Notes under the pieces: model-generated
What the model was told of the DNA's origin: nothing
Databases searched by the model: none
The model's input: the letters and a program-made list of their open reading frames with translations, nothing else
Shown: positions 5,936 through 54,981 of the stretch, one piece after another
How positions within the stretch are numbered: the first letter of the stretch is position 1
Layout: every line of letters starts with the position of its first letter
Translations under genes and position numbers: made by a program
Assembly (NCBI GenBank): GCA_965202645.1
Contig: OZ241840.1
Location: 492,088 to 556,087, forward strand
Length of the DNA: 64,000 nt
Source: Bdellovibrionales bacterium
GTDB lineage: Bacteria; Bdellovibrionota; Bdellovibrionia; Bdellovibrionales; UBA1609
Direction of reading: 5' to 3'

Positions 5936-6072
5936 CAAAAACAATGGCTTTGCCCGGCCTTTTAATCCGTACGATCCTCTGGCTCCAAAATAGCTTTCAT
6001 CCCTTGCTATTTGACTTTGGGAAACAGGCTGTTTTTCCCGCAGCGCTCAGCTATTCTTATACAAATGTTTTT

Positions 6073-6500: not shown

Positions 6501-6736
6501 ATGGAATATATAGATAAGCTTGTCCCTTTATTCACAGTTGGAATTTTCTTTATCGGGTTTTTAGCTTTGCTTAATTCTCTTTTAAATTCAAAAATAGAGC
6601 TTTTAAAAGCTAATCAAGCCCGTTTTGATAGCGAGCTTACAGGCATAAAGCCCGTTTTGACATAGAGCTTAAAGGCATAAAAGAAGGTCAAGCTAAACTT
6701 GAGGCTAAGCTTGATCAGCTTTTAGAAAAAGCTTAA
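6501..6736 (+). pseudogene. Small N-terminal-TM coiled-coil protein (GQAKLE family), frameshifted by a 32-bp tandem duplication
   Basis: ATG 6501 gives MEYIDKLVPLFTVGIFFIGFLALLNS...GIKPVLT*, stopping at 6665. Units starting at 6618 and 6650 (GCCCGTTTTGA...GGCATAAA) are 32 bp apart. Deleting one unit yields a 67-aa ORF ending ...GIKEGQAKLEAKLDQLLEKA*. Confidence 0.55.
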
Positions 6737-6790: not shown

Positions 6791-7417
6791 ATGGAAAGTT
6801 TAGATTTTATAGAGAGAAAAGCGGAAGGCGGAGACTCAGACGCTCAATATAAATTAGGCATCCATTATCAGGGCATGAGGAATCGAAGCCTTGAAAAGGC
6901 TTTTCATTGGTTTGAGCGAGCGGCACAGCAAGGGCACACTCAAGCTCAATACCAGTTAGCCTTTTGTTATCAGACAGGCTGGGGCGTAAAACAGAGCGAT
7001 AAGTTTGCTCTCCATTGGTATAAGCAGGCGGCAGAGAAAGGGGATGCGATCGCTCAACATATTTTAGGCGTCATCTATGAGACAGGCTGGGGGGGAGAGC
7101 AAAGCTTTGAGCAAGCTATCTATTGGCATAAACTAGCGGCAAATCAAAAATATGCGGATGCTCAATACAAATTAGGCGTCCTTTATTATGATGGCCATGG
7201 CGGGAGGCAAAACTTTAAAGAGGCTTTCCATTGGTATAAGCTTGCGGCAGAGCAAGGGCATATTCCGGCTCAATACTATTTAGGCATCCTTTATCATAAA
7301 GGCCAGGGTGTAAAGCAAAATTTTTTAAAAGCTGAAGAGTGGCTTCAGCGGGCGGCGCAACGAGGGCTTTCGGAGGCGCAAAACTATTTAAAAAACCAAT
7401 TAGAGACTTCTTATTAA
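6791..7417 (+). CDS. Sel1/TPR-like repeat protein
   Basis: Five or six tandem units of about 36 aa, of the form AxxWYxxAAEQGHxxAQYxLGxxYxxGxGVxQ. Confidence 0.9.
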   Translation: MESLDFIERKAEGGDSDAQYKLGIHYQGMRNRSLEKAFHWFERAAQQGHTQAQYQLAFCYQTGWGVKQSDKFALHWYKQAAEKGDAIAQHILGVIYETGWGGEQSFEQAIYWHKLAANQKYADAQYKLGVLYYDGHGGRQNFKEAFHWYKLAAEQGHIPAQYYLGILYHKGQGVKQNFLKAEEWLQRAAQRGLSEAQNYLKNQLETSY

Positions 7418-12449: not shown

Positions 12450-12776
12450 ATGGAAGGTTTAGACACAAGCGAAAAAAACTTAATACAGAGGCTGTCTCTA
12501 AAAGACACATCGCCAAGGTTTCAAACCATTGGCGTAACAGTGAGCTGTTTTATTTTGTTTTTTTTCTTCATAAGTTTTATTTTAGAGGCTAAAGTTGATC
12601 CGATCAAAAAAGATATCGCCAAGGTTGAGGCTGATATTGCCAAGGTTGAGGCTGATATTGCCAAGGTTAAGGCGGATATTTCCGCGCTTGGGGCTGGACA
12701 GGCCAAGCTTGAGGCCGGACAAGACAGCCTAAAAAGCGACATCGCGGAAATAAAAAACTTGCTATTAAAAAAGTAG
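12450..12776 (+). CDS. Small TM plus coiled-coil protein (GQAKLE family) with internal 21-bp repeats
   Basis: TM segment IGVTVSCFILFFFFISFIL, then DIAKVEA x3 (21-bp DNA repeat) and GAGQAKLEAGQDSLKSDIAEIKNLL. Paralogs at 6501 and 16297. Confidence 0.6.
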   Translation: MEGLDTSEKNLIQRLSLKDTSPRFQTIGVTVSCFILFFFFISFILEAKVDPIKKDIAKVEADIAKVEADIAKVKADISALGAGQAKLEAGQDSLKSDIAEIKNLLLKK

Positions 12777-12851
12777 TATGAGCCGCAAACTCAAAAAGCT
12801 TAAAGCGCGTCAGATCCGTCTCTCTCTCGCTCTCTTTTGGAAGACAATTTA

Positions 12852-12869
12852 CCCCCCCCCCCCCCCCCC
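12852..12869. repeat. Homopolymeric C18 tract
   Basis: I counted 18 consecutive C residues, 102 bp upstream of the pilin-like ORF start at 12971. Confidence 0.95.
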
Positions 12870-14259
12870 GATTTTTTTCTCTTATAAATAAGCTCTTTAA
12901 AAGACAAGCCCGTATCGGCTTTAGCCTTTGCTCCCTTAACTGGATCGTCCCCGCAAAATGGACAATTTACTTGGCAAACTATCTAAATATCAAAGATAGA
13001 TCAAACAGCGCTTTTAACCCTCACCTCACCCCATTACATACCGGGTTTAGCCTCATTGAAGTTTTAATAACTTCCACAATCGGCTTGGTTTTAGGCGCCG
13101 GAGTTTTAAAGCTAAGCCAGATCGCTATTGAAAATACTCATATCCTCAAGACGATCTTTGCGGAGCAAAGACTTGAAAAAGCAGTCAGTGACGCTTTAAC
13201 AGATCAAGCTCATTGCAAAGATATTTTAGGGCAGTTTCATTCAAAAACAGTTGATTCAGACGGAGCTATTTCCGTCACTAATGACAGCTCAAAAACCTAT
13301 AAATATGGAGTAAAGACTGGCGAATTTGAGGGCGGTATAATTGACATTCAAGCAATAAAATTAACCCCTCCAGCCGCCGCTGATTGGACTGCCGCTAATT
13401 CAGAGACGGATTATGTTCTCTATTATAAAAAGCCCCGGCTTGGCAAATATGCGACTCTAGGCGGCAATACATGCTCCGCCTCCGATCAAACCGGCTGTTA
13501 TTTTGTTAAATGCAAAATGAATTATTTTTGCTCTGACAACACATGCCAAACGGACGGCGATCAGTGTCAGCTTGTGGCCGGGAGCTGTAAGGGGAATAAC
13601 CAGGGGAGTAATGCTATAGCAAACAAAGAGTGTGATCCGGGGCTTTCTTTAACCGGGTTTGACTCCGCTGGAGAGCCGATTTGCAGAATAGCCTGCTCTT
13701 CCGGCCGGGTTTATGATGCCGGGGCCTGTAAATGCCCCGGCGCTCCCGGTGAATTAAAGTGGAAGCGGGCTGGCGAAGTGGACGAGGGGCGTTGTCTTTG
13801 CGCTAAGAGTGATGGGACTTATGATTATAGAAAAGTCTGGAATGGGAAAAAGTGTGTGACTAAGTGCACTGGAATTAATAAGTTTAACACAGTCACAAAG
13901 CAGTGCACTGAATGCGATGACAGCGGCAATCCGCCGGATTATCACTGGTGGGCGCTCACTAATACATGCGTCTATTGCCCTGAACGCGCTGCTACGGCTA
14001 CACACACACGGACGGCCTTTTTTGCTGTAGGCCAAAGCTGTGGCTGCCATGGTGTTGGAGGCAGAGAATTAAAATTTTATAATCTCTTTAACGGTCAAGA
14101 AGATGTATGCGTCGACAAATGCGAAGCGAATGAGCATTGGAACGGGACAAGCTGTATCAATAAATGTTCAGCCGGGGAAAGGTGGTTTACAGGTTATTAT
14201 CCGTCGCCGGGCCGCTGTCAAAGTTGTCCGGGAACATGGCATCCATATACTAAAATAAA

Positions 14260-15011
14260 GGTTCATGACAACTTAAGCTCTGTTTGATAGAGGTTAAGTT
14301 GTTGAAATGACTGTAAAAAACAAGTATTTTCTCCGTTCAAGAATTTCTGAGCCTAAATTTAGGGAAATTGTTAGGCTCTTTTCTGCCGATCTGACAGCCC
14401 AACAAATAGCTTTTTTTTCGGGAATCAGCAGAAACAGCATCAATAAAATCTTAAAAAATATCCGTATAAGAATGGCTGAGCATTGCGAGAAAAATAGCCT
14501 GTTTTCTAAAGGTCAAATAGAAATGGATGAAAGCTATTTTGGGCCTCGAAGAATACGCGGAAAAAAAGGCCGGGGAGCTTATGGAAAAACTATCGTTTTT
14601 GGCGTTAAAAAAAGACAAGGGAAGGTTTATACCCAAATCATTAAGAATTGCTCAAAAAAGGAGGTTTTGCCTCTTATAAGAGATAAAATTGACAGAAAGA
14701 CAACCCTATTTACAGACGGATTTAAGACCTATGATAGTTTAGTGGATTTGGGTTATAAGAAACATTATAGGGTGCATCACGGGAAGAATGAATTTTCTAA
14801 AAAAGAGGGGAAGATAAAAAGCCATATTAATGGCATAGAAAATTTTTGGGGGATCGCTAAAGTGAGGCTTTATAAATTTAGAGGAATGGATAAAAGAACA
14901 TTCTATTTGCATTTAAAAGAATGTGAGTTTAGATTTAATTATAGACAAGATAATTTATATGTGTTATTATTAAAAATCATCAGAAATAGACCCCTTAAGT
15001 TGTCATGAACC
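14260..15011 (+). mobile_element. IS1595-family (IS1016-like) insertion sequence, 752 bp
   Basis: Perfect 18-bp TIRs GGTTCATGACAACTTAAG (14260-14277; reverse complement at 14994-15011). Single transposase ORF. AAATAAA is duplicated at 14253-14259 and 15012-15018. Confidence 0.9.
14307..15008 (+). CDS. IS1595-family (ISXO2-like DDE) transposase
   Basis: 233 aa. The N-terminal HTH-like region, ...EMDESYFG...GKT.VFG...TDG.K.Y....H..V.H and ...HINGIENFW...K match my recollection of IS1016-group transposases. Confidence 0.88.
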   Translation: MTVKNKYFLRSRISEPKFREIVRLFSADLTAQQIAFFSGISRNSINKILKNIRIRMAEHCEKNSLFSKGQIEMDESYFGPRRIRGKKGRGAYGKTIVFGVKKRQGKVYTQIIKNCSKKEVLPLIRDKIDRKTTLFTDGFKTYDSLVDLGYKKHYRVHHGKNEFSKKEGKIKSHINGIENFWGIAKVRLYKFRGMDKRTFYLHLKECEFRFNYRQDNLYVLLLKIIRNRPLKLS

Positions 15012-15657
15012 AAATAAAAAAATACGTACAAAATTTTTTTATGTGTCAATGTCCCGCCGGGCAAAAATGGTGTCACAAATCCGGCGGCGGCTTTGACTGT
15101 TTTGAGCGATGCAAGGATTGGGGCAAAGAATGGAACAGCTCAAGCAAAACATGCGTGGCTAGATGTTCAAGTGGTCTAGTATGGAATGGCAAACGCTGTG
15201 TCAGAAAATGCGATGGGACTGGGGAGAATGGGAAGGGACGGGATCACGACTCCAGCGCCTGCCGCTCCTGTGTGACTATTCCTGCTGAAGATGGAGTAAA
15301 TTGGATCGTCGCCGGCTCCAATCGCGGCCAGATCGCTGGAGACTGTATTCCGCAAAATACTAATGATCCTCCCCCCCCCGACCACATATAACGGTTTTCA
15401 AAATAAATGTTATTGCGGTGCGAAGATATGTCCCGATAGCCAACAGCCTTAAGATAAGCCAGCTCAGTTGAATTGTGGCCCACGGCTGGGAGTCAATTCA
15501 GCCGGCAGTTTACTCCCGGCCGTCCGCCTCTTTTTTTTGTGGCCACCGGCTTAATAACCCAGTTTGTAAAATTTTCACACTAGAGAGATTTAAGATAATT
15601 TAAGTTTTCTTTTTTTTACTGTGATATAAAATCCTCAAACAAACCATAGGAGGATTT

Positions 15658-16197
15658 ATGCAAAAAATTATTATAAGGCTTTTCTCTGCCTTAACCAAAG
15701 AGATAAAAATCGGCTTTAAGCGTTTAGCCGTGATAGGCGTTATTGGACTAATCGGCTTTTCTAATTATGGCTATGGAGCTGGAGCTGATGTCAATACTAG
15801 AGATAATAGCGGCTCGACTCCCTTAATCGCGGCCGTCATAAATGGACATTATGATGTCGCAAAGGTTTTAATTGAATACAAAGCTGATGTTAATATTCCA
15901 AATAATAAAGGCGCGACTGCTTTGCATTATGCCTCATTTTTGGGATACAGTAACATTGCAAAATTGCTGATCGACGCTGGAGCTGATGTCAATGCTAAAG
16001 ATAATGACGGATGGACTCCTCTTAAATATGCCATGAGCTTTATGGACTTTCATGCGCAAGCAGATGGAAAACTTAACAATGACAATCCTTCCCATGTCAA
16101 ATTTCTAAAAATCATATCTATAATAAAAAGCAGAATGGCGGAGAGGCCGGCGGACAAAGGCACGCCAGACGAATACCGCAACTCAAGCGACGAATGA
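15658..16197 (+). CDS. Ankyrin-repeat protein with N-terminal TM/signal segment
   Basis: Three ANK units (GADVN..D..G.TPL..A...GH.D.AK.LI). Strong RBS AGGAGG. Confidence 0.9.
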   Translation: MQKIIIRLFSALTKEIKIGFKRLAVIGVIGLIGFSNYGYGAGADVNTRDNSGSTPLIAAVINGHYDVAKVLIEYKADVNIPNNKGATALHYASFLGYSNIAKLLIDAGADVNAKDNDGWTPLKYAMSFMDFHAQADGKLNNDNPSHVKFLKIISIIKSRMAERPADKGTPDEYRNSSDE

Positions 16198-16296: not shown

Positions 16297-16515
16297 ATGG
16301 CAATTTTTACTCCGCTATTTCAAGCTATTATTGCTTTTGTGGCCGTTTTGACTGGCTTAGGCATTATTTTTGGATTGATTTTAGAGCCAGTCAGTTTCCG
16401 CTTGACTAGTCTTGAGGAGGGCCAAGCCAAGCTTGAAAAGAGAATGGACGGTTTAGAGGATAAAATTGACAATTTTTTAAAGCATAGCCACAAAAAGAGC
16501 ATAGTTCAGCGCTAA
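16297..16515 (+). CDS. Small TM plus coiled-coil protein (GQAKLE family)
   Basis: TM segment FQAIIAFVAVLTGLGIIFGLIL, then LEEGQAKLEKRMDGLEDKIDNFL. Third paralog in the window. Confidence 0.6.
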   Translation: MAIFTPLFQAIIAFVAVLTGLGIIFGLILEPVSFRLTSLEEGQAKLEKRMDGLEDKIDNFLKHSHKKSIVQR

Positions 16516-16719: not shown

Positions 16720-18174
16720 TTATCTTGCAATATCTCTATAGCAGACAGATAAATAAGCTGGACAGAGTTTATAAATTTTTGATCCGGCGCTAGTATCCTT
16801 TATTTCGGATTCATTAAGCAAATGGAATCCGTGACAGCTATTTCCCCCGGTGTTTAAAATCTCCGGATCAAATTCAATCCGAGAAAAACCGGGAGAGTAG
16901 CAACTGGACTTTCTAAATTTAATACAAGGATGACGGGTATTGATATACTCTTCCCCTCTCCAAGCGATAACATTGCCAATTTCAAAGGGCAATCTATGTA
17001 ATTCATAAGAGCCAAACTCCCGCTCAAAATAATATTTTTCATCCGCTGTTGGGTTTCTGCCAGTTTGGCAGAATCCTTCCGGTGATATATTTTGAGCGAT
17101 TTTAGAATTGCGCGGCCGATAATAATTATACTGTTTGTTAAAGTCGCTTGAGGGGCCGCTGGTCGATCGATGAACCATAAGTCTAAGCTCTCTGGGACAA
17201 GTCCATCGCCCCTCTATTTTGTTTGTCTGTAAATTTTCTTCATGAATATTATGTATGTAATTTGCTTGATAAGGCTCTGCAAACTCAATCTTATAACTTC
17301 TGCCATAAGGCTTTCTGTTTGAGCTAAAAATAGGCGGCCCGTTTGTCCTGCCAAGAGTATAAGTCAAAGTGAGAAGTGGGTCACCGGAACTTCCTTGAGC
17401 CAAAGCCGGGGCCCAAGCGACAAGCTGGGCGCTCAATAAAGGCAGGCTGGTTTGAAAAAGTCCGCTGTTATTAACATTAACCCTATCCAGGCTCCGGGAT
17501 GTAAATACCGGCTTGAGCTGGCTCAGAAGGTTTAAAGTGACAACATTGTCAAAGCGGGGAAAAAAATTAGCTATATGCTTTCCCTGTGAGCTTATCGGGG
17601 TATTGATGTTGGATTCACTATGAAGCCCTAAGCGGGCTAGGGCGCGTCTATAAGGGGATCTGTCAATTAACTGCCGGACTCTTTGTGGAGGATCTCCGCT
17701 TTTGATTTTGTGGCTATCTTTAAAATCCTCTGATAGCTGAAGGCCAGATTGCTGAAGGCCAAGAGGATAAGCGCCAGCTGTTAAAGTAAAAGGATAACCA
17801 TTAATTCTTTGATCAAAAGGACATGTTACAGTTGTGATAGTGTTTGGGGTTAAATTATATAAAAACTCATTATCTCGATTATTAGAATAATCTCCGCCGG
17901 AGCCGGGATTGCTATAGCTGGAGCCGGAACCTCGATTGCTATAGCCGGAGCTGGGCGGGCCATAAGACGCATGTTGGCCGGAGCCTTGATTGTCTTGGCC
18001 GGAGCCGGGAGCGCCAGTGGGCGGCTGTCCCGCGCCGCCGGGAGCGCCAGCGGGGCCTTGATTCCCATAAGGTTGTCCGGTTGAGGGCAGGTTGCTAGGG
18101 CCTCTGTGAGAGCAAAAGGACAGCGCTCCCGCTATCAAACATAACCCAGCGGCATATTTTAACAAACTTTTCAC
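16720..18174 (-). CDS. Secreted or lipoprotein-like hypothetical protein with a G/S/N/P/Y-rich low-complexity region
   Basis: The ORF is open to 18363, but a GTG at 18174 gives a classical signal peptide, MKSLLKYAAGLCLIAGALSFCS. I recognise no family. Confidence 0.55.
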   Translation of the reverse strand: MKSLLKYAAGLCLIAGALSFCSHRGPSNLPSTGQPYGNQGPAGAPGGAGQPPTGAPGSGQDNQGSGQHASYGPPSSGYSNRGSGSSYSNPGSGGDYSNNRDNEFLYNLTPNTITTVTCPFDQRINGYPFTLTAGAYPLGLQQSGLQLSEDFKDSHKIKSGDPPQRVRQLIDRSPYRRALARLGLHSESNINTPISSQGKHIANFFPRFDNVVTLNLLSQLKPVFTSRSLDRVNVNNSGLFQTSLPLLSAQLVAWAPALAQGSSGDPLLTLTYTLGRTNGPPIFSSNRKPYGRSYKIEFAEPYQANYIHNIHEENLQTNKIEGRWTCPRELRLMVHRSTSGPSSDFNKQYNYYRPRNSKIAQNISPEGFCQTGRNPTADEKYYFEREFGSYELHRLPFEIGNVIAWRGEEYINTRHPCIKFRKSSCYSPGFSRIEFDPEILNTGGNSCHGFHLLNESEIKDTSAGSKIYKLCPAYLSVCYRDIAR

Positions 18175-18370
18175 TAAGTATTTAATCGGCTCATTTTGAC
18201 TTTTTCTTAAATGGCTATAGCTATTGAGGCCGCGGCTGGGAGTCAATTCAGCCGGCAGTTTCCGCCTAAAATTTATCTTTGGCCTGTTCCTGTGGATGAG
18301 CCTTTTACCGGCAAGAGTTTTAAGCTTCTTCCTGTGAAAGAGTCTTTTTTCTGAATGGAGCATTTGTTAT

Positions 18371-19756
18371 TCACACAGCGGCTATGATAAGTCTTTGTTT
18401 TGATGACCGGATTAGGACATCTTCCGCAAAGCGCCGCATAATTACACAGTTTTTTGCACTGCGGGCGCTCTTGATAAAGAATTTCCTCTCCCGCCTGTGT
18501 GTGACAGGGTAATAAAAAATTTTCGACGGCTGCCACTGCCAGGGCGGAGAGAGAAGGTCGACATATCGTCTTTTAAGCATTCCGTGACTGATGGGATTTT
18601 TCGCTTCTTTAGCAATAAAATCGGCATTGCAGGGGACTAGGCGGCAATCAGAATCAAACTGACAGTCAGTTGCCAAATCATCGCCTCCCGGGGTTTTAAG
18701 AGTGGCTCTATAGATGTTTAAGAAAGCTTTTCCGCTCTCTTTAAAGCCGTTTTGATTATAAACGCAGGCTAACTTTTTCCAAAGGGCGCTTTTAGAGGGG
18801 TTTAGAAAAGCGGCTTTTCTCAGCCGTTTAAAAACTTGCGCTTTGCTTGGACAGCTTTCATTTTTATTTTTTAATTGGCTTTTCCGGCATTGATCAGAAC
18901 ATTGCGGGAAAGCCTGCCTTATCGCGTGATCTAGGCCGGCATCTTCAGGAAACCAGTATGCGGCTTGGCCGCGGATCAGCTTCTTAAAACAGTCAACATT
19001 CCTTCCACATTTCCCTTTGAGAAACTTTCCCACCATTCCCAGTTTGTAGGCGTTGACCATGCCCACCCCATTTTTGCGGGGATTTTCAAAAGCGGAGTGA
19101 AGTGTGGGGATGGCTGTTTTTTTCAAAAGGATTTTAGCCTCTTCCGGTGTGGGATGATAGCCGGACAGCCATTCAAAACCCGCTAGACTTCCCGTCACTA
19201 AAGGGGCCGCTCCGCTTGTCCCGCCAAAAGGAAAATATTTTCCATCGTCATAGGCGGAGGTCAAACTATAGTCCGATGGGGCCATGATATGAACCGCCCT
19301 CCCCTGACTGGAAAAATCGCTTCGCAAGCCATCTGGATGGAGACTTCCCACAATAATGGCATTAAAATCCTTTGAGGCGCGGGCTTTGTCAGGATGAACA
19401 GACAAGCCCAAATCATTTTTATTTCCAGCCGATGTGACTAATATAGAGGGAGGGGAAAGTTTTTTATAAGCATTGAAGCTGGATCTAGAGCTGACTTGGA
19501 ACACTCTTCCTTTCCTTCGTTTGAGTGGCCCAGACAGAGATTCATTTATAAAAGAGGACAAAGATTTGCTCCAGCATTGCTCTATTGGAATTATAGGAGT
19601 TATTTTAAGCGCTAAATACGGTAATTTAGCTTTGGCAACTAATAAGGGAGGGATTAACTTAGGCGCAGTTAGTTTTTTTGCGGGCGCTGGCATCGAGCAA
19701 AAAAACAGCGCTAAAGCAAAAAATTTATTCATCATGCTGTCCTTTCTGTTGCTCAT
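18371..19756 (-). CDS. Subtilisin-like (S8) serine peptidase, C-terminal catalytic half plus Cys-rich extension; probably part of a disrupted gene
   Basis: INESLSG, SILVTSAGNKN (oxyanion Asn) and FGGTSGAAPLVTGSLA (catalytic Ser) align with subtilisin BPN'. No Asp or His motif is present in this ORF. Confidence 0.65.
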   Translation of the reverse strand: MSNRKDSMMNKFFALALFFCSMPAPAKKLTAPKLIPPLLVAKAKLPYLALKITPIIPIEQCWSKSLSSFINESLSGPLKRRKGRVFQVSSRSSFNAYKKLSPPSILVTSAGNKNDLGLSVHPDKARASKDFNAIIVGSLHPDGLRSDFSSQGRAVHIMAPSDYSLTSAYDDGKYFPFGGTSGAAPLVTGSLAGFEWLSGYHPTPEEAKILLKKTAIPTLHSAFENPRKNGVGMVNAYKLGMVGKFLKGKCGRNVDCFKKLIRGQAAYWFPEDAGLDHAIRQAFPQCSDQCRKSQLKNKNESCPSKAQVFKRLRKAAFLNPSKSALWKKLACVYNQNGFKESGKAFLNIYRATLKTPGGDDLATDCQFDSDCRLVPCNADFIAKEAKNPISHGMLKRRYVDLLSPPWQWQPSKIFYYPVTHRRERKFFIKSARSAKNCVIMRRFAEDVLIRSSKQRLIIAAV

Positions 19757-20687
19757 ACTCTTTAGGCTCTTTAGGCTCTTTAAGCCCGCATTTTTTTCTT
19801 GCTTGCATCAACAAACTATTTATGGCCCTTAGCGTTTTTGAAATACGGTCAGTCCGAACATAATTTATTCCGCTTCCCATCTCCGGCAAAACCGCGTGTT
19901 TTCCTTTATCTGAGATTAAGTTTTTGACCCCTATATAATGATTTCGATTTGGACCGTCAAAAACAGAGACTAAACGCTTGTTGGGCCGGGGGGTTTTTTT
20001 TAGCTCCTCTTTTAAGAGATCAGCGCCTATCATCTCTTGCGCCCAATAATCCGGAAGGGGCGAATTAAGCTTTCCCGCTATTAAATTTAATTTTGTGGAG
20101 ACAATTCCACAGGATCTTAAGTCAGCAATGGGTGGGATCAGGGGGGGCTTAAAATAGCCAATGTGCTCGGCGGCGGAAGGTGGGATCCGCGGATCAGGGG
20201 GGGGGGGGGGTAGGCTGGCTTTTTGCTCCCTCGCGGGGTTTAACAGGTCATCCGGCTCGCAGTAATCTAAAAAGGCAAGCTTCGGGAGATTTTTGCAAAA
20301 ATCTTCCGCTAGCACAGCCTTTTTCTCTTTATCCCACTCAAACACCCAGGACTTAAAAATTTCATACTCCGCGCTAGCGGTTAAAGCCGCCTCTTTTGTT
20401 TTTTGGAGAATAAGCTCTTTTTCGGACTGACTGAGGGGCCACTTCTTAAAAGCTAGTATAACCCCCTTAGCCTGAGACTCTTGATTATTAAAAAAAGGCG
20501 GTATTTTTTTAGCCTTTAGCGCGGAGCTGAGGGCTGTTTTGCGCTGAGGAGAGGAGTTGGCCGGGCGTTTTTTCGATAAGCTGGCTGGATTTTTTTGGCT
20601 TTTAGCCTCCGCAAAAGGCAGAGCCTTCAAATCCGGCCGGATAAAAAGGCTAAGGGCAAAAAACAACAAAAAAAGCTTTTTTCTCAT
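19725..20687 (-). CDS. Signal peptide, propeptide-like region and putative S8 Asp/His region; overlaps the next ORF by 32 bp
   Basis: MRKKLFLLFFALSLF signal. YWAQEMIGADLL...RLVSVFDG resembles the S8 N-terminal Asp block. Contains a C14 tract encoding PPPPP. Confidence 0.5.
   Translation of the reverse strand: MRKKLFLLFFALSLFIRPDLKALPFAEAKSQKNPASLSKKRPANSSPQRKTALSSALKAKKIPPFFNNQESQAKGVILAFKKWPLSQSEKELILQKTKEAALTASAEYEIFKSWVFEWDKEKKAVLAEDFCKNLPKLAFLDYCEPDDLLNPAREQKASLPPPPPDPRIPPSAAEHIGYFKPPLIPPIADLRSCGIVSTKLNLIAGKLNSPLPDYWAQEMIGADLLKEELKKTPRPNKRLVSVFDGPNRNHYIGVKNLISDKGKHAVLPEMGSGINYVRTDRISKTLRAINSLLMQARKKCGLKEPKEPKEYEQQKGQHDE
20197..20210. repeat. Homopolymeric G14 (coding-strand C14) tract inside ORF 19725..20687
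   Basis: I counted 14 consecutive G residues. It is translated as PPPPP(D) in the current frame. Confidence 0.95.
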
Positions 20688-50614: not shown

Positions 50615-51424
50615 TTGATAAATTATAATGGCCAGCCTCTGCCTATGAATCCAGTCGTTTATAATACAATAGAGAATCAAAAAAGGCAACAGCATATATT
50701 GCCTTATCAGCTTAAAAAAGATGACGGAATTTTTTTTACAAATGAAATTAAGATTATTGATTCCATTCTTGATATCATTAAATTTGATAATAATATTGTA
50801 AATAAAAAAATTTTAGACCCCGCTGTTGGCAATGGAATTTTTTTATTAAGGATTATTGAAAAAGCATGCCAATATTGCTCAAATAAAAGAAAAATTAAAA
50901 ATTTTATAGAAAATGGCTTGTTTTTTATTGATATAGATCCCGAAAAGATAGAAAAAACAAAAAAAAATATCTTTAATTTATATAAACACCTTTTTAATGA
51001 GCGATATACAGGTGAATTTAATGGTTTTGTATATGATTTTACTGAAAAAATTGAAACAGATTTAACTTTATTCAAAGAAAAACATTGTCAAAAATTAGCC
51101 AGTTTGTTGCGCAAAATGGATTATGTTGTTGGCAATCCGCCGTATGTCACTCTTTATGGCCGAAGAGACAGAAAAAAAAGTGAATCGCAAAGAGTTAAAT
51201 ATTTAAATCAATATAGCCAATTTCCTCAAAATTTAAAGAATGGAAAAATTAATTATATAATGCTTTTTATTGAGTATAGTTTGGAGTATCTAAAGAAAAA
51301 TGGGAAATTATCTTTTATTGTGGATATATCTTTTTTTGAAACAGCTTATAAATATACAAGGAAATATCTTCTAGAGAATGTTAAAATCCTCTCCTCTATT
51401 GATATTTTCTTCAAGATTTCTTGA
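50615..51424 (+). CDS. N6-adenine DNA methyltransferase (gamma-type, Eco57I/TaqI-like), apparently truncated
   Basis: Motif I ILDPAVGNGIFLL and motif IV VVGNPPYV. The ORF ends after 269 aa with no target-recognition region. It lies in a visibly AT-rich patch. Confidence 0.7.
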   Translation: MINYNGQPLPMNPVVYNTIENQKRQQHILPYQLKKDDGIFFTNEIKIIDSILDIIKFDNNIVNKKILDPAVGNGIFLLRIIEKACQYCSNKRKIKNFIENGLFFIDIDPEKIEKTKKNIFNLYKHLFNERYTGEFNGFVYDFTEKIETDLTLFKEKHCQKLASLLRKMDYVVGNPPYVTLYGRRDRKKSESQRVKYLNQYSQFPQNLKNGKINYIMLFIEYSLEYLKKNGKLSFIVDISFFETAYKYTRKYLLENVKILSSIDIFFKIS

Positions 51425-54750: not shown

Positions 54751-54981
54751 CTTAAGTTAGCTTTTAATGATAGGAAAAGCAGGGACAGATCAGTGAGTTT
54801 AGATTTAATCATAGACAAGATAATTTATATGTGTTATTAAAAATCATTAGAAATAGACCCCTTAAGTTGTCATGAACCTTATTAAAAATCATTAGAAATA
54901 GGCCTCTTATCTTAAGCTGTATGAGCCTTTGTTATTATTAAAAATATTGAGAAATAGGCCCCTTAAAGCGCGTCATGAACC
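54745..54981. mobile_element. Internally deleted IS1016-like derivative with three tandem copies of the right end
   Basis: 54793-54878 matches IS positions 14925-15011. A left-end-like ACTTAAG..GATAG block lies at 54755-54780. Two further decayed copies of the terminal ~50 bp end at 54927 and 54981. Confidence 0.7.

Follow-up and report, generated by a model that had tools for sequence, protein, structure and literature searches.

A probably disabled pilin-like gene with a cysteine-rich head in a Bdellovibrionales bacterium, and the modular, poly-C-associated family to which it belongs

In a 64,000-nucleotide (nt) stretch of the genome of a Bdellovibrionales bacterium (contig OZ241840.1 of assembly GCA_965202645.1, positions 492,088 to 556,087; hereafter the window, within which all positions are counted), a gene encoding a protein with a type IV pilin-like N-terminus and a long cysteine-rich C-terminal region is interrupted by an insertion sequence (IS). 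The locus raises the question of what the intact gene encoded, and of whether its present state reflects a reversible switch or decay. We propose that the gene is probably a disabled copy from a recombining, poly-C phase-variable family of modular type-IV-pilin-like surface proteins. The window copy carries three lesions: a C18 tract that leaves the leader off by one base, an IS at codon 430, and a C9 tract that entails the loss of the last 20 residues. A decaying, probably dead family member is the most likely reading, rather than an IS-switched gene, and a truncated product of 438 amino acids (aa) could still be made from the TTG at 12971.

One gene split by an insertion sequence

The interrupted gene and the inserted element comprise the following features.

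12971..14259 (+): upstream part of the split pilin-like, Cys-rich gene, beginning at the annotated TTG and broken off by the IS within codon 430
14253..14259: left target-site duplication AAATAAA, 7 bp
14260..15011 (+): IS1595-family insertion sequence, 752 bp, recognised by transposase models, terminal inverted repeats (TIRs) and target-site duplication
14307-15008 (+): transposase open reading frame (ORF) of the IS, 233 aa, single ORF, full-length IS1595-family
15012..15018: right target-site duplication AAATAAA, 7 bp
15019..15391 (+): remaining 3' part, in phase with the upstream part, with the stop of the present frame (TAA) at 15389-15391
15371..15379 (+): C9 tract, frameshift site relative to the paralog P0002
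15380..15452 (+): out-of-frame tail TTYNGFQNKCYCGAKICPDSQQP, ending in a TAA stop at 15450-15452

At present, the 5' ORF reads on into the IS up to position 14287 and yields a protein of 438 aa (P0001). Joining 12971-14259 to 15019-15391 in silico generates a continuous ORF of 1662 nt, encoding 553 aa plus a stop and containing 41 Cys, in which the junction reads ...TWHPYTKIKKYVQNFFMCQCPAGQKW, as a preliminary description of this DNA had stated. The two halves belong to one gene rather than two: the intact paralog P0002 (593 aa) is colinear with both, its residues 1-452 aligning to 12971-14254 and its residues 450-570 to 15005-15376, and the alignment runs unbroken across the junction, so that an origin of the halves in different genes is not borne out. 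The in-frame rebuild proposed in the preliminary description thus stands, whereas its length of 553 aa is not the full one, as the C9 tract cuts off the last 20 aa. With C8 or C11 at 15371-15379 the ORF would extend to 573 or 574 aa and end in ...CYCGAKICPDSQQP before the stop, matching the extreme C-terminus of P0002, and the tail brought in frame adds three Cys for a total of 44, equal to P0002. The paralog-like end of the ORF therefore lies 61 nt further downstream. The C9 tract may be prone to slippage as well, or it may reflect a sequencing error in a homopolymer; the motif C9 matches 17 times in the window, where 1.2 matches are expected. For annotation, the lesson is that the ORFs flanking the IS are one gene whose true end is 61 nt downstream.

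The preliminary description had also noted an IS with perfect 18-bp TIRs flanked by AAATAAA on both sides, and the analysis confirms this element and assigns it to a family. The 18-bp inverted repeat GGTTCATGACAACTTAAG at 14260-14277 and 14994-15011 is perfect (100% complementary), and the transposase matches NF033547 (E 4.9e-45, 154 bits against a cutoff of 75) and PF12762 (E 2e-25), its closest annotated relatives being IS1595-family transposases. The combination of a DDE_Tnp_IS1595 transposase with TIRs and a target-site duplication places the element in the IS1595 family, and its GC content (31-39%) is distinct from that of the flanking gene (42-52%). Its single-ORF transposase, length of about 750 bp, short perfect TIRs and 7-bp AT-rich duplication resemble those of the IS1016 group, whose size and duplication ranges are reportedly given in ISfinder and by Siguier in 2009; the element is a candidate member of this group, and it differs from known ones in that its transposase is just 61% identical to the nearest annotated match, on a Trichlorobacter plasmid.

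The TIR 18-mer occurs three times in the 64-kb window, against 0.04 expected. The third occurrence belongs to a 90-bp relic of this IS at 54790-54878, derived from its right end (perfect TIR, ~96% identical) and located between amidohydrolase and fumarase genes. This remnant points to decay of the IS in place, not to cycling. A weaker transposase-like fragment is found at 5951-6072 (-).

Pilin-type N-terminus, carrier module and Cys-rich head

The N-terminus of the rebuilt protein carries the feature on which its assignment as pilin-like hinges (here and below, a slash after the glycine marks the prepilin cleavage position).

13043..13108 (+): class III (prepilin) signal motif, G(-1) / F S L I E(+5) V L I T S T I G L V L G A G V

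The signal reads HTG/FSLIEVLITSTIGLVLGAGV and combines a leader ending in Gly with about 20 hydrophobic residues and a Glu at +5, as in class III signals. The prepilin-type N-terminus put forward in the preliminary description is upheld by the TIGR02532 profile (17.9 bits against a cutoff of 16.3, covering residues 24-46); the Pfam N_methyl model scores 18.2 for the rebuilt protein, under its gathering score of 21.2. In the wider family described below, N_methyl is recognised in 25 of 92 members (best E 8.7e-7), and at a mean identity of ~30% G(-1) does not vary while conservation of E(+5) reaches at least 90%. The best PDB matches of a family profile were type IVb pilins in full length, with alignments starting at mature residue 1 (TcpA, E 0.004; CofA, E 0.15), and the PDB sequence searches gave no match past the alpha-1 helix.

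The signal is followed by a module that we term the carrier, spanning residues ~25-210, and by a head of Cys repeats at residues ~220-573. Heads are exchangeable among paralogs and relatives, and the protein accordingly has the organization of a modular pilin, supporting the earlier view of a pilin anchor joined to a large Cys-rich head. An AlphaFold2 model built from a 92-sequence alignment predicts a helix at residues 27-90 followed by strands forming a beta-sheet, with a predicted local distance difference test score (pLDDT) mostly above 80 over residues 31-210 except for a loop at ~91-110. The head is modeled as a series of short hairpins at lower confidence, so that the 92-sequence model is adequate for the N-terminal module only; a run with six paralogs gave a pLDDT of 39.6 and was not usable. 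Foldseek searches returned no significant structural match, including to solved pilins.

The leader measures 25 aa from the TTG at 12971 and would measure 89 aa if the frame of an upstream ATG at 12778 were restored, and in relatives it ranges from 5 to ~360 codons.

The preliminary description had likened the Cys repeats to eukaryote-style, furin-like or growth-factor-receptor modules, and homology of this kind is not supported. A Pfam scan of the rebuilt protein yielded nothing at E ≤ 1 besides N_methyl, with no match to PF00757, PF14843 or related models, and across 92 family members (E ≤ 0.01) nothing but N_methyl was recurrent, with no furin-like, GF_recep_IV, EGF or TNFR domain. Neither the PDB sequence searches nor Foldseek provided a significant match for the repeats; the weak Foldseek hits on mGluR/CaSR, HVEM/UL144 and IGF1R, each in a Cys-rich domain, were non-significant (E>3). 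Judged by sequence, the Cys repeats are a trait of an undescribed bacterial family. What they have in common with eukaryotic Cys-rich repeats, such as furin-like and growth-factor-receptor modules or the CXXC repeats of Giardia VSP, is a dense, regular pairing of Cys in small disulfide-stapled hairpins and a likely rod-like extracellular shape; in the lack of sequence or significant structural homology they differ, and the likeness is one of resemblance only.

A recombining family with poly-C tracts

A word-indexed search of 5.8 billion proteins recovered six relatives only, all of them encoded on one 2,207,895-bp contig and including the window's own P0001, which identifies the contig as the window's genome; it also holds a seventh locus (P0011), truncated at the N-terminus. 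Identity among these paralogs depends on the region compared. The rebuilt protein reaches 78-79% identity to P0003 and P0004 over residues 61-165, against 42% to P0002, which in this region is 95-96% identical to P0005 and P0006; in the head, identity of the rebuilt protein is 58-63% to P0002 and 15-32% to the other paralogs. Because identity patterns differ between the N-terminal module and the head, the paralogs are mosaic and their modules have been recombined.

A full HMMER profile search of 1.84 billion representative proteins identified 246 homologs, 165 of them at E ≤ 1e-10. Members align over profile positions ~36-252 and then diverge, and they have in common the signal G/F(G/S)L(V/I)E and a module of ~200-220 aa with conserved Cys and motifs such as YYKKPRLG..TLGG..C...GCYF.SCK.DY. 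Beyond this module, head types include 'C..G.YLKGFD..G.P.C' units and long arrays of 'CPS..PKWNGS.C..C' units; some members carry G-rich, fibre-like repeats, and P0063 has a weak Peptidase_S74 match at its C-terminus. Carriers in the GTDB representative set are only two closed metagenome-assembled genomes of about 2 Mb, both named 'Bdellovibrionales bacterium', a taxonomic spread that is a lower bound as the scan used one narrow pattern. Further members are encoded on contigs of 1.9-2.3 Mb, and comparison of the window with the relatives' loci revealed no common orthologs. The DnaK of the window's organism is likewise a singleton when proteins are clustered at 90% identity.

In one relative the family is linked to a secretion operon. 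At locus L008, in a 1.9-Mb relative, a gsp-type operon begins with the member P0054, whose gene overlaps the one that follows.

L008, operon after P0054: T2SSE-T2SSF-T2SSG-N_methyl x2-T2SSJ-T2SSK-PilM_2

The leader of P0054 reads MNMKG/FSLIEVL, and hhalign aligns the protein to the carrier module with a probability of 99.7% (E 8.5e-27). In hhalign comparisons the signal motif also aligns in register with three pseudopilins at this locus (GspG, GspH-like and GspJ). As these matches cover the signal helix alone, we ruled out that the carrier module is a Gsp pseudopilin in disguise.

Upstream of the annotated TTG start, the window contains a homopolymeric tract and a leader ORF.

12778..12891 (+): ATG-initiated leader ORF MSRKLKKLKARQIRLSLALFWKTIYPPPPPP..., sent by C18 into the TAA at 12889-12891
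12852..12869 (+): homopolymeric C18 tract, candidate slipped-strand switch, ~100 nt upstream of the TTG at 12971

The tract leaves the leader ORF off by one base, and C17 or C20 at 12852-12869 would fuse it in frame with the pilin-like ORF. The leader ORF is homologous to the in-frame N-termini of P0003-P0006 (MSSKLKKLNRQSIYPPPPPPPRFF...), which are annotated from the homologous Met and contain an in-frame poly-Pro of 5-8 residues. In the window, 87 stop-free codons precede the G/F site, a stretch expected by chance in 0.7% of shuffled sequence, and relatives present C16-C29 at the equivalent place with 52-361 stop-free codons. Across the family, these tracts lead gene callers to inconsistent start calls.

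Comparison of locus L010 with L002 and L004 established that tract length varies between close relatives. The two genomes are 99.7-99.9% identical over the aligned locus and differ in poly-C length, which is the sole indel in a 10.6-kb segment and one of three in a 6.7-kb segment. At one tract, C16 in one genome and C25 in the other give products of 563 and 566 aa, both in frame, whereas at the other C20 gives a 989-aa ORF and C18 a broken frame; a G8 tract between the two loci is identical in length in both. Such length differences between near-identical genomes are, as far as can be read from sequence, the signature of a slipped-strand contingency locus. The window has the long tract near an ORF that defines such loci, and the frame-changing length variation is seen in relatives, not in this genome. 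A role for C18 as a promoter spacer in the window was set aside: the nearest -10-like element, a TATAAA at 12883-12888, has no usable -35 element at tract lengths near 18. Promoter and terminator scans around the tract were uninformative, and an Rfam scan returned tRNAs only.

Several further observations concern the region of the leader. At L002, L004, L005 and L006, family genes often occur as tandem pairs in which a gene with a long 5' extension and a poly-C tract is followed by one with a leader of 13-31 codons, such as the ordinary leader MTVLRKSVLGRAG/MGLMEVL. In relatives, the stop-free stretch between poly-C and pilin motif consists of tandem units of ~34 aa (~102 nt), GKACYFAAGLSRLKSCFCF..SRVRQISRVAG, found at about 7000-8000 in L004 and in the N-termini of P0019, P0020, P0027, P0033 and P0042, with a copy number that varies between paralogs. 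Between the C18 tract and the TTG at 12971, the window has a small hairpin at 12906-12921, AAGCCCGTATCGGCTT. The segment around it (FKRQARIGFSLCSLNW...), which only the window copy, P0002 and P0003 have, resembles a degenerate duplicate of the G/FSL motif, which suggests past recombination or duplication in the leader region.

Directly upstream of the leader ORF lies a further candidate for the same unit.

12450..12776 (+): small ORF of 108 aa with a transmembrane segment and 7-residue coiled-coil repeats

Its stop (TAG, 12774-12776) ends 1 nt before the ATG at 12778, so that translation of the small ORF may be coupled to that of the leader ORF; whether the small ORF is a member of the pilin-like unit is uncertain. 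Similar small transmembrane and coiled-coil ORFs occur elsewhere in the window (16297-16515 (+) and about 6528-6650) and near family genes in L002 (4692-5006 (-)) and L001 (8127-8393 (-) and 18742-19026), with weak mutual similarity; the repeats read DIAKVEADIAKVEADIAKVKADI... in the window and EIRADVEGIRADVEGIRADV in L002.

Competing explanations, neighbouring genes and known systems

These results are consistent with the following model. The intact protein would consist of a Gly-ending leader, a class III signal and hydrophobic alpha-1 helix (G/FSLIEVL...), a family-specific carrier of ~200 aa with a predicted long helix and beta-sheet, and a long disulfide-rich head of small CxnC...W...C hairpin modules. 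By means of the carrier, the protein would leave the inner membrane and be built into a type IV filament, which could be a type II secretion pseudopilus or a type IV pilus; there the bulk of the protein would probably place it at the filament tip, presenting a slender Cys-rich rod to the surface of prey or host. Across the seven loci, carrier modules and heads have been reshuffled by recombination. Expression would probably be stochastic, governed by the C16-C29 tract between the upstream ATG and the pilin module; as this tract lies within the leader that is discarded on cleavage, slippage would break or restore the frame while leaving the mature protein unchanged. The sequences themselves show the anatomy of the locus, the family and its mosaicism, the polymorphic tract length in relatives and, in one relative, the link to an operon; incorporation into filaments, function as an adhesin and translational ON/OFF switching in this genome are what we infer from these data. 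A broader version of the model, which we advance only tentatively, is that a clade of ~2-Mb Bdellovibrionales-like bacteria possesses contingency of the kind known from pathogens, with up to seven recombining, pilin-anchored, disulfide-rich adhesins, each gated by C16-C29 and displayed by a pseudopilus or type IV pilus to recognise prey or host surfaces.

Several observations weigh against the model. No pilus or secretion genes were found in the 64-kb window, and most family members seen are orphans, without filament genes nearby. Known prepilin leaders have ~5-30 aa, and leaders of 36-360 aa, as implied if the upstream ATG is the true start, are far above this range. A block following the tract, GCACYGCGTCATAAGTGG, is conserved between L006 and L007 although its reading frame differs, a hint of conservation as DNA that would be compatible with a regulatory role. 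Assembled homopolymers do not always have the correct length, making the ON/OFF state of any single copy uncertain, and the adhesin role of the head we infer purely from architecture.

These observations bear on two alternatives. The pilin-like N-terminus could be an inner-membrane anchor only, possibly left uncleaved with a long cytoplasmic extension, the Cys-rich part residing in the periplasm or envelope. Upstream extensions of 52-361 stop-free codons, unlike those of normal prepilin leaders, would fit such an anchor, and so would the orphan setting of the gene in the window, L001, L006, L007 and L009 and the lack of a significant structural match to solved pilins. We nonetheless consider this unlikely, given that an otherwise divergent family strictly retains G(-1) and E(+5), as expected only if processing by prepilin peptidase and filament assembly matter, that one member lies inside a gsp operon and overlaps its neighbour, and that members with short leaders of 5-31 codons exist. 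The poly-C tract, for its part, might not be a translational switch: it could act on transcription, in the promoter or the 5' untranslated region, or be neutral hypervariable DNA or a homopolymer sequencing artefact. Speaking for this are the gene calls of the window copy and P0002, which begin at a TTG ~100 nt beyond the tract, the shifting frame of the conserved block in L006 and L007 and the proneness of long homopolymers to assembly error. It is nevertheless a rather improbable account of a tract whose frame is open to the pilin module in the window (chance ~0.7%) and for up to 361 codons in relatives, through which P0003-P0006 are in frame from the upstream Met, which no plausible -35/-10 pair brackets in the window, and which is the only indel in a 10.6-kb segment of genomes 99.7-99.9% identical while the G8 tract is unchanged.

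Very improbable, finally, is the explanation suggested in the preliminary description, by which the IS would be a reversible excision switch and the head a eukaryote-type furin-like or growth-factor-receptor domain. Perfect TIRs, an intact-looking transposase and the 7-bp duplication do imply that an exact deletion would restore the frame, and a superficial likeness in CxxC-type spacing, along with weak Foldseek matches (E>3), recalls the eukaryotic domains. Excision as a switch is, however, without support, for the frame is recovered only by exact loss of the IS and one 7-bp repeat; if both 7-bp copies remained, it would be shifted. Since a precise 759-bp deletion is required and the C18 and C9 defects would persist as two further frame problems, re-activation by IS excision is unlikely, and the remnant at 54790-54878 points to decay. 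Homology of the head to the eukaryotic domains is largely refuted by the absence of furin-like, GF_recep_IV, EGF and TNFR Pfam matches here and in 92 relatives, and by the occurrence of the Cys repeat throughout a bacterial family. We retain as most likely the reading of the window copy as a disabled member of a phase-variable, modular pilin-like family.

Elsewhere in the window we observed the following features.

6791-7417 (+): Sel1-repeat protein (Pfam E 2e-51)
15658-16197 (+): ankyrin-repeat protein directly downstream of the pilin-like gene, its repeats recognised by eye
16720-18363 (-): ORF of 547 aa with a G/S/P/Q-rich, low-complexity N-terminal third, no Pfam match, and a singleton in the protein collection
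18371-19756 (-): ORF of 461 aa with a partial subtilase S8 domain
19725-20687 (-): secreted-looking ORF of 320 aa, overlapping the preceding ORF by 32 nt
20197-20210 (- strand): C14 tract in the middle of the 320-aa ORF, read as PPPPP
50615-51424 (+): ORF of 269 aa with only the core of an Eco57I/MmeI-type N6-methylase

Eukaryote-like repeat proteins such as those with ankyrin or Sel1 repeats are common in host-associated bacteria. The 320-aa and 461-aa ORFs, with a tandem AAAGAGCCTAAAGAGCCTAAAGAG just upstream of their overlap, may be one split or phase-variable protease gene. The 269-aa ORF is distantly similar (23% identity) to a portion of a 589-aa gene with a methylase domain, located close to the family gene in L001, and may be a truncated restriction-modification gene.

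Among known systems, the closest parallel is with modular pilins, a class that has been described and is widespread (Raynaud et al. 2021, PMC8179133), so that the preliminary description of the protein as an unusual surface adhesin was overstated. Like Streptococcus sanguinis PilB and PilC, CofB and GspK, the protein has an N-terminal class III signal with its pilin module, to which a bulky module of non-pilin type is fused; in modular pilins the latter is presumed to be displayed at the filament tip for adhesion. The pairing of a pilin with a weak Peptidase_S74 match in P0063 is an architecture listed for this class (PMC8179133). It differs in that neither the carrier (~200 aa with conserved Cys and YYKKPRLG...GCYF.SCK) nor the Cys head matches a described domain, and in that it belongs to a recombining multigene family with 5' poly-C tracts and leaders that may be very long. 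Poly-G phase variation of Neisseria pilC was reportedly described by Jonsson in 1991. In Neisseria pilC1 and pilC2 a homopolymer near the 5' coding end of a pilus-associated adhesin gene undergoes slipped-strand ON/OFF switching (PMC5231331), as proposed here. PilC/PilY1, however, is not a pilin and its tracts measure ~9-13, against 16-29 here, where they lie in a pilin-type leader, in a family of up to seven loci and in a non-pathogen lineage. With the minor pseudopilins of type II secretion (GspH, GspI, GspJ and GspK) the family shares a class III signal in register, and one member stands in an operon together with gspE, F, G, H, I, J and K; there is no similarity past the N-terminal helix, and the family protein is much larger, Cys-rich and mostly unlinked to such operons.

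Modular pilins and homopolymer phase variation are each known, mostly from host-adapted pathogens, and are here combined in an uncharacterised small-genome lineage, the named relatives of which are all labelled Bdellovibrionales, in a family for which neither Pfam nor NCBIfam holds a model beyond the 20-residue signal. If display on filaments is true, this family would provide a model for the carriage of bulky cargo by type IV filaments or pseudopili, for the variation of surface recognition in such bacteria and for a switch hidden in a discarded leader peptide.

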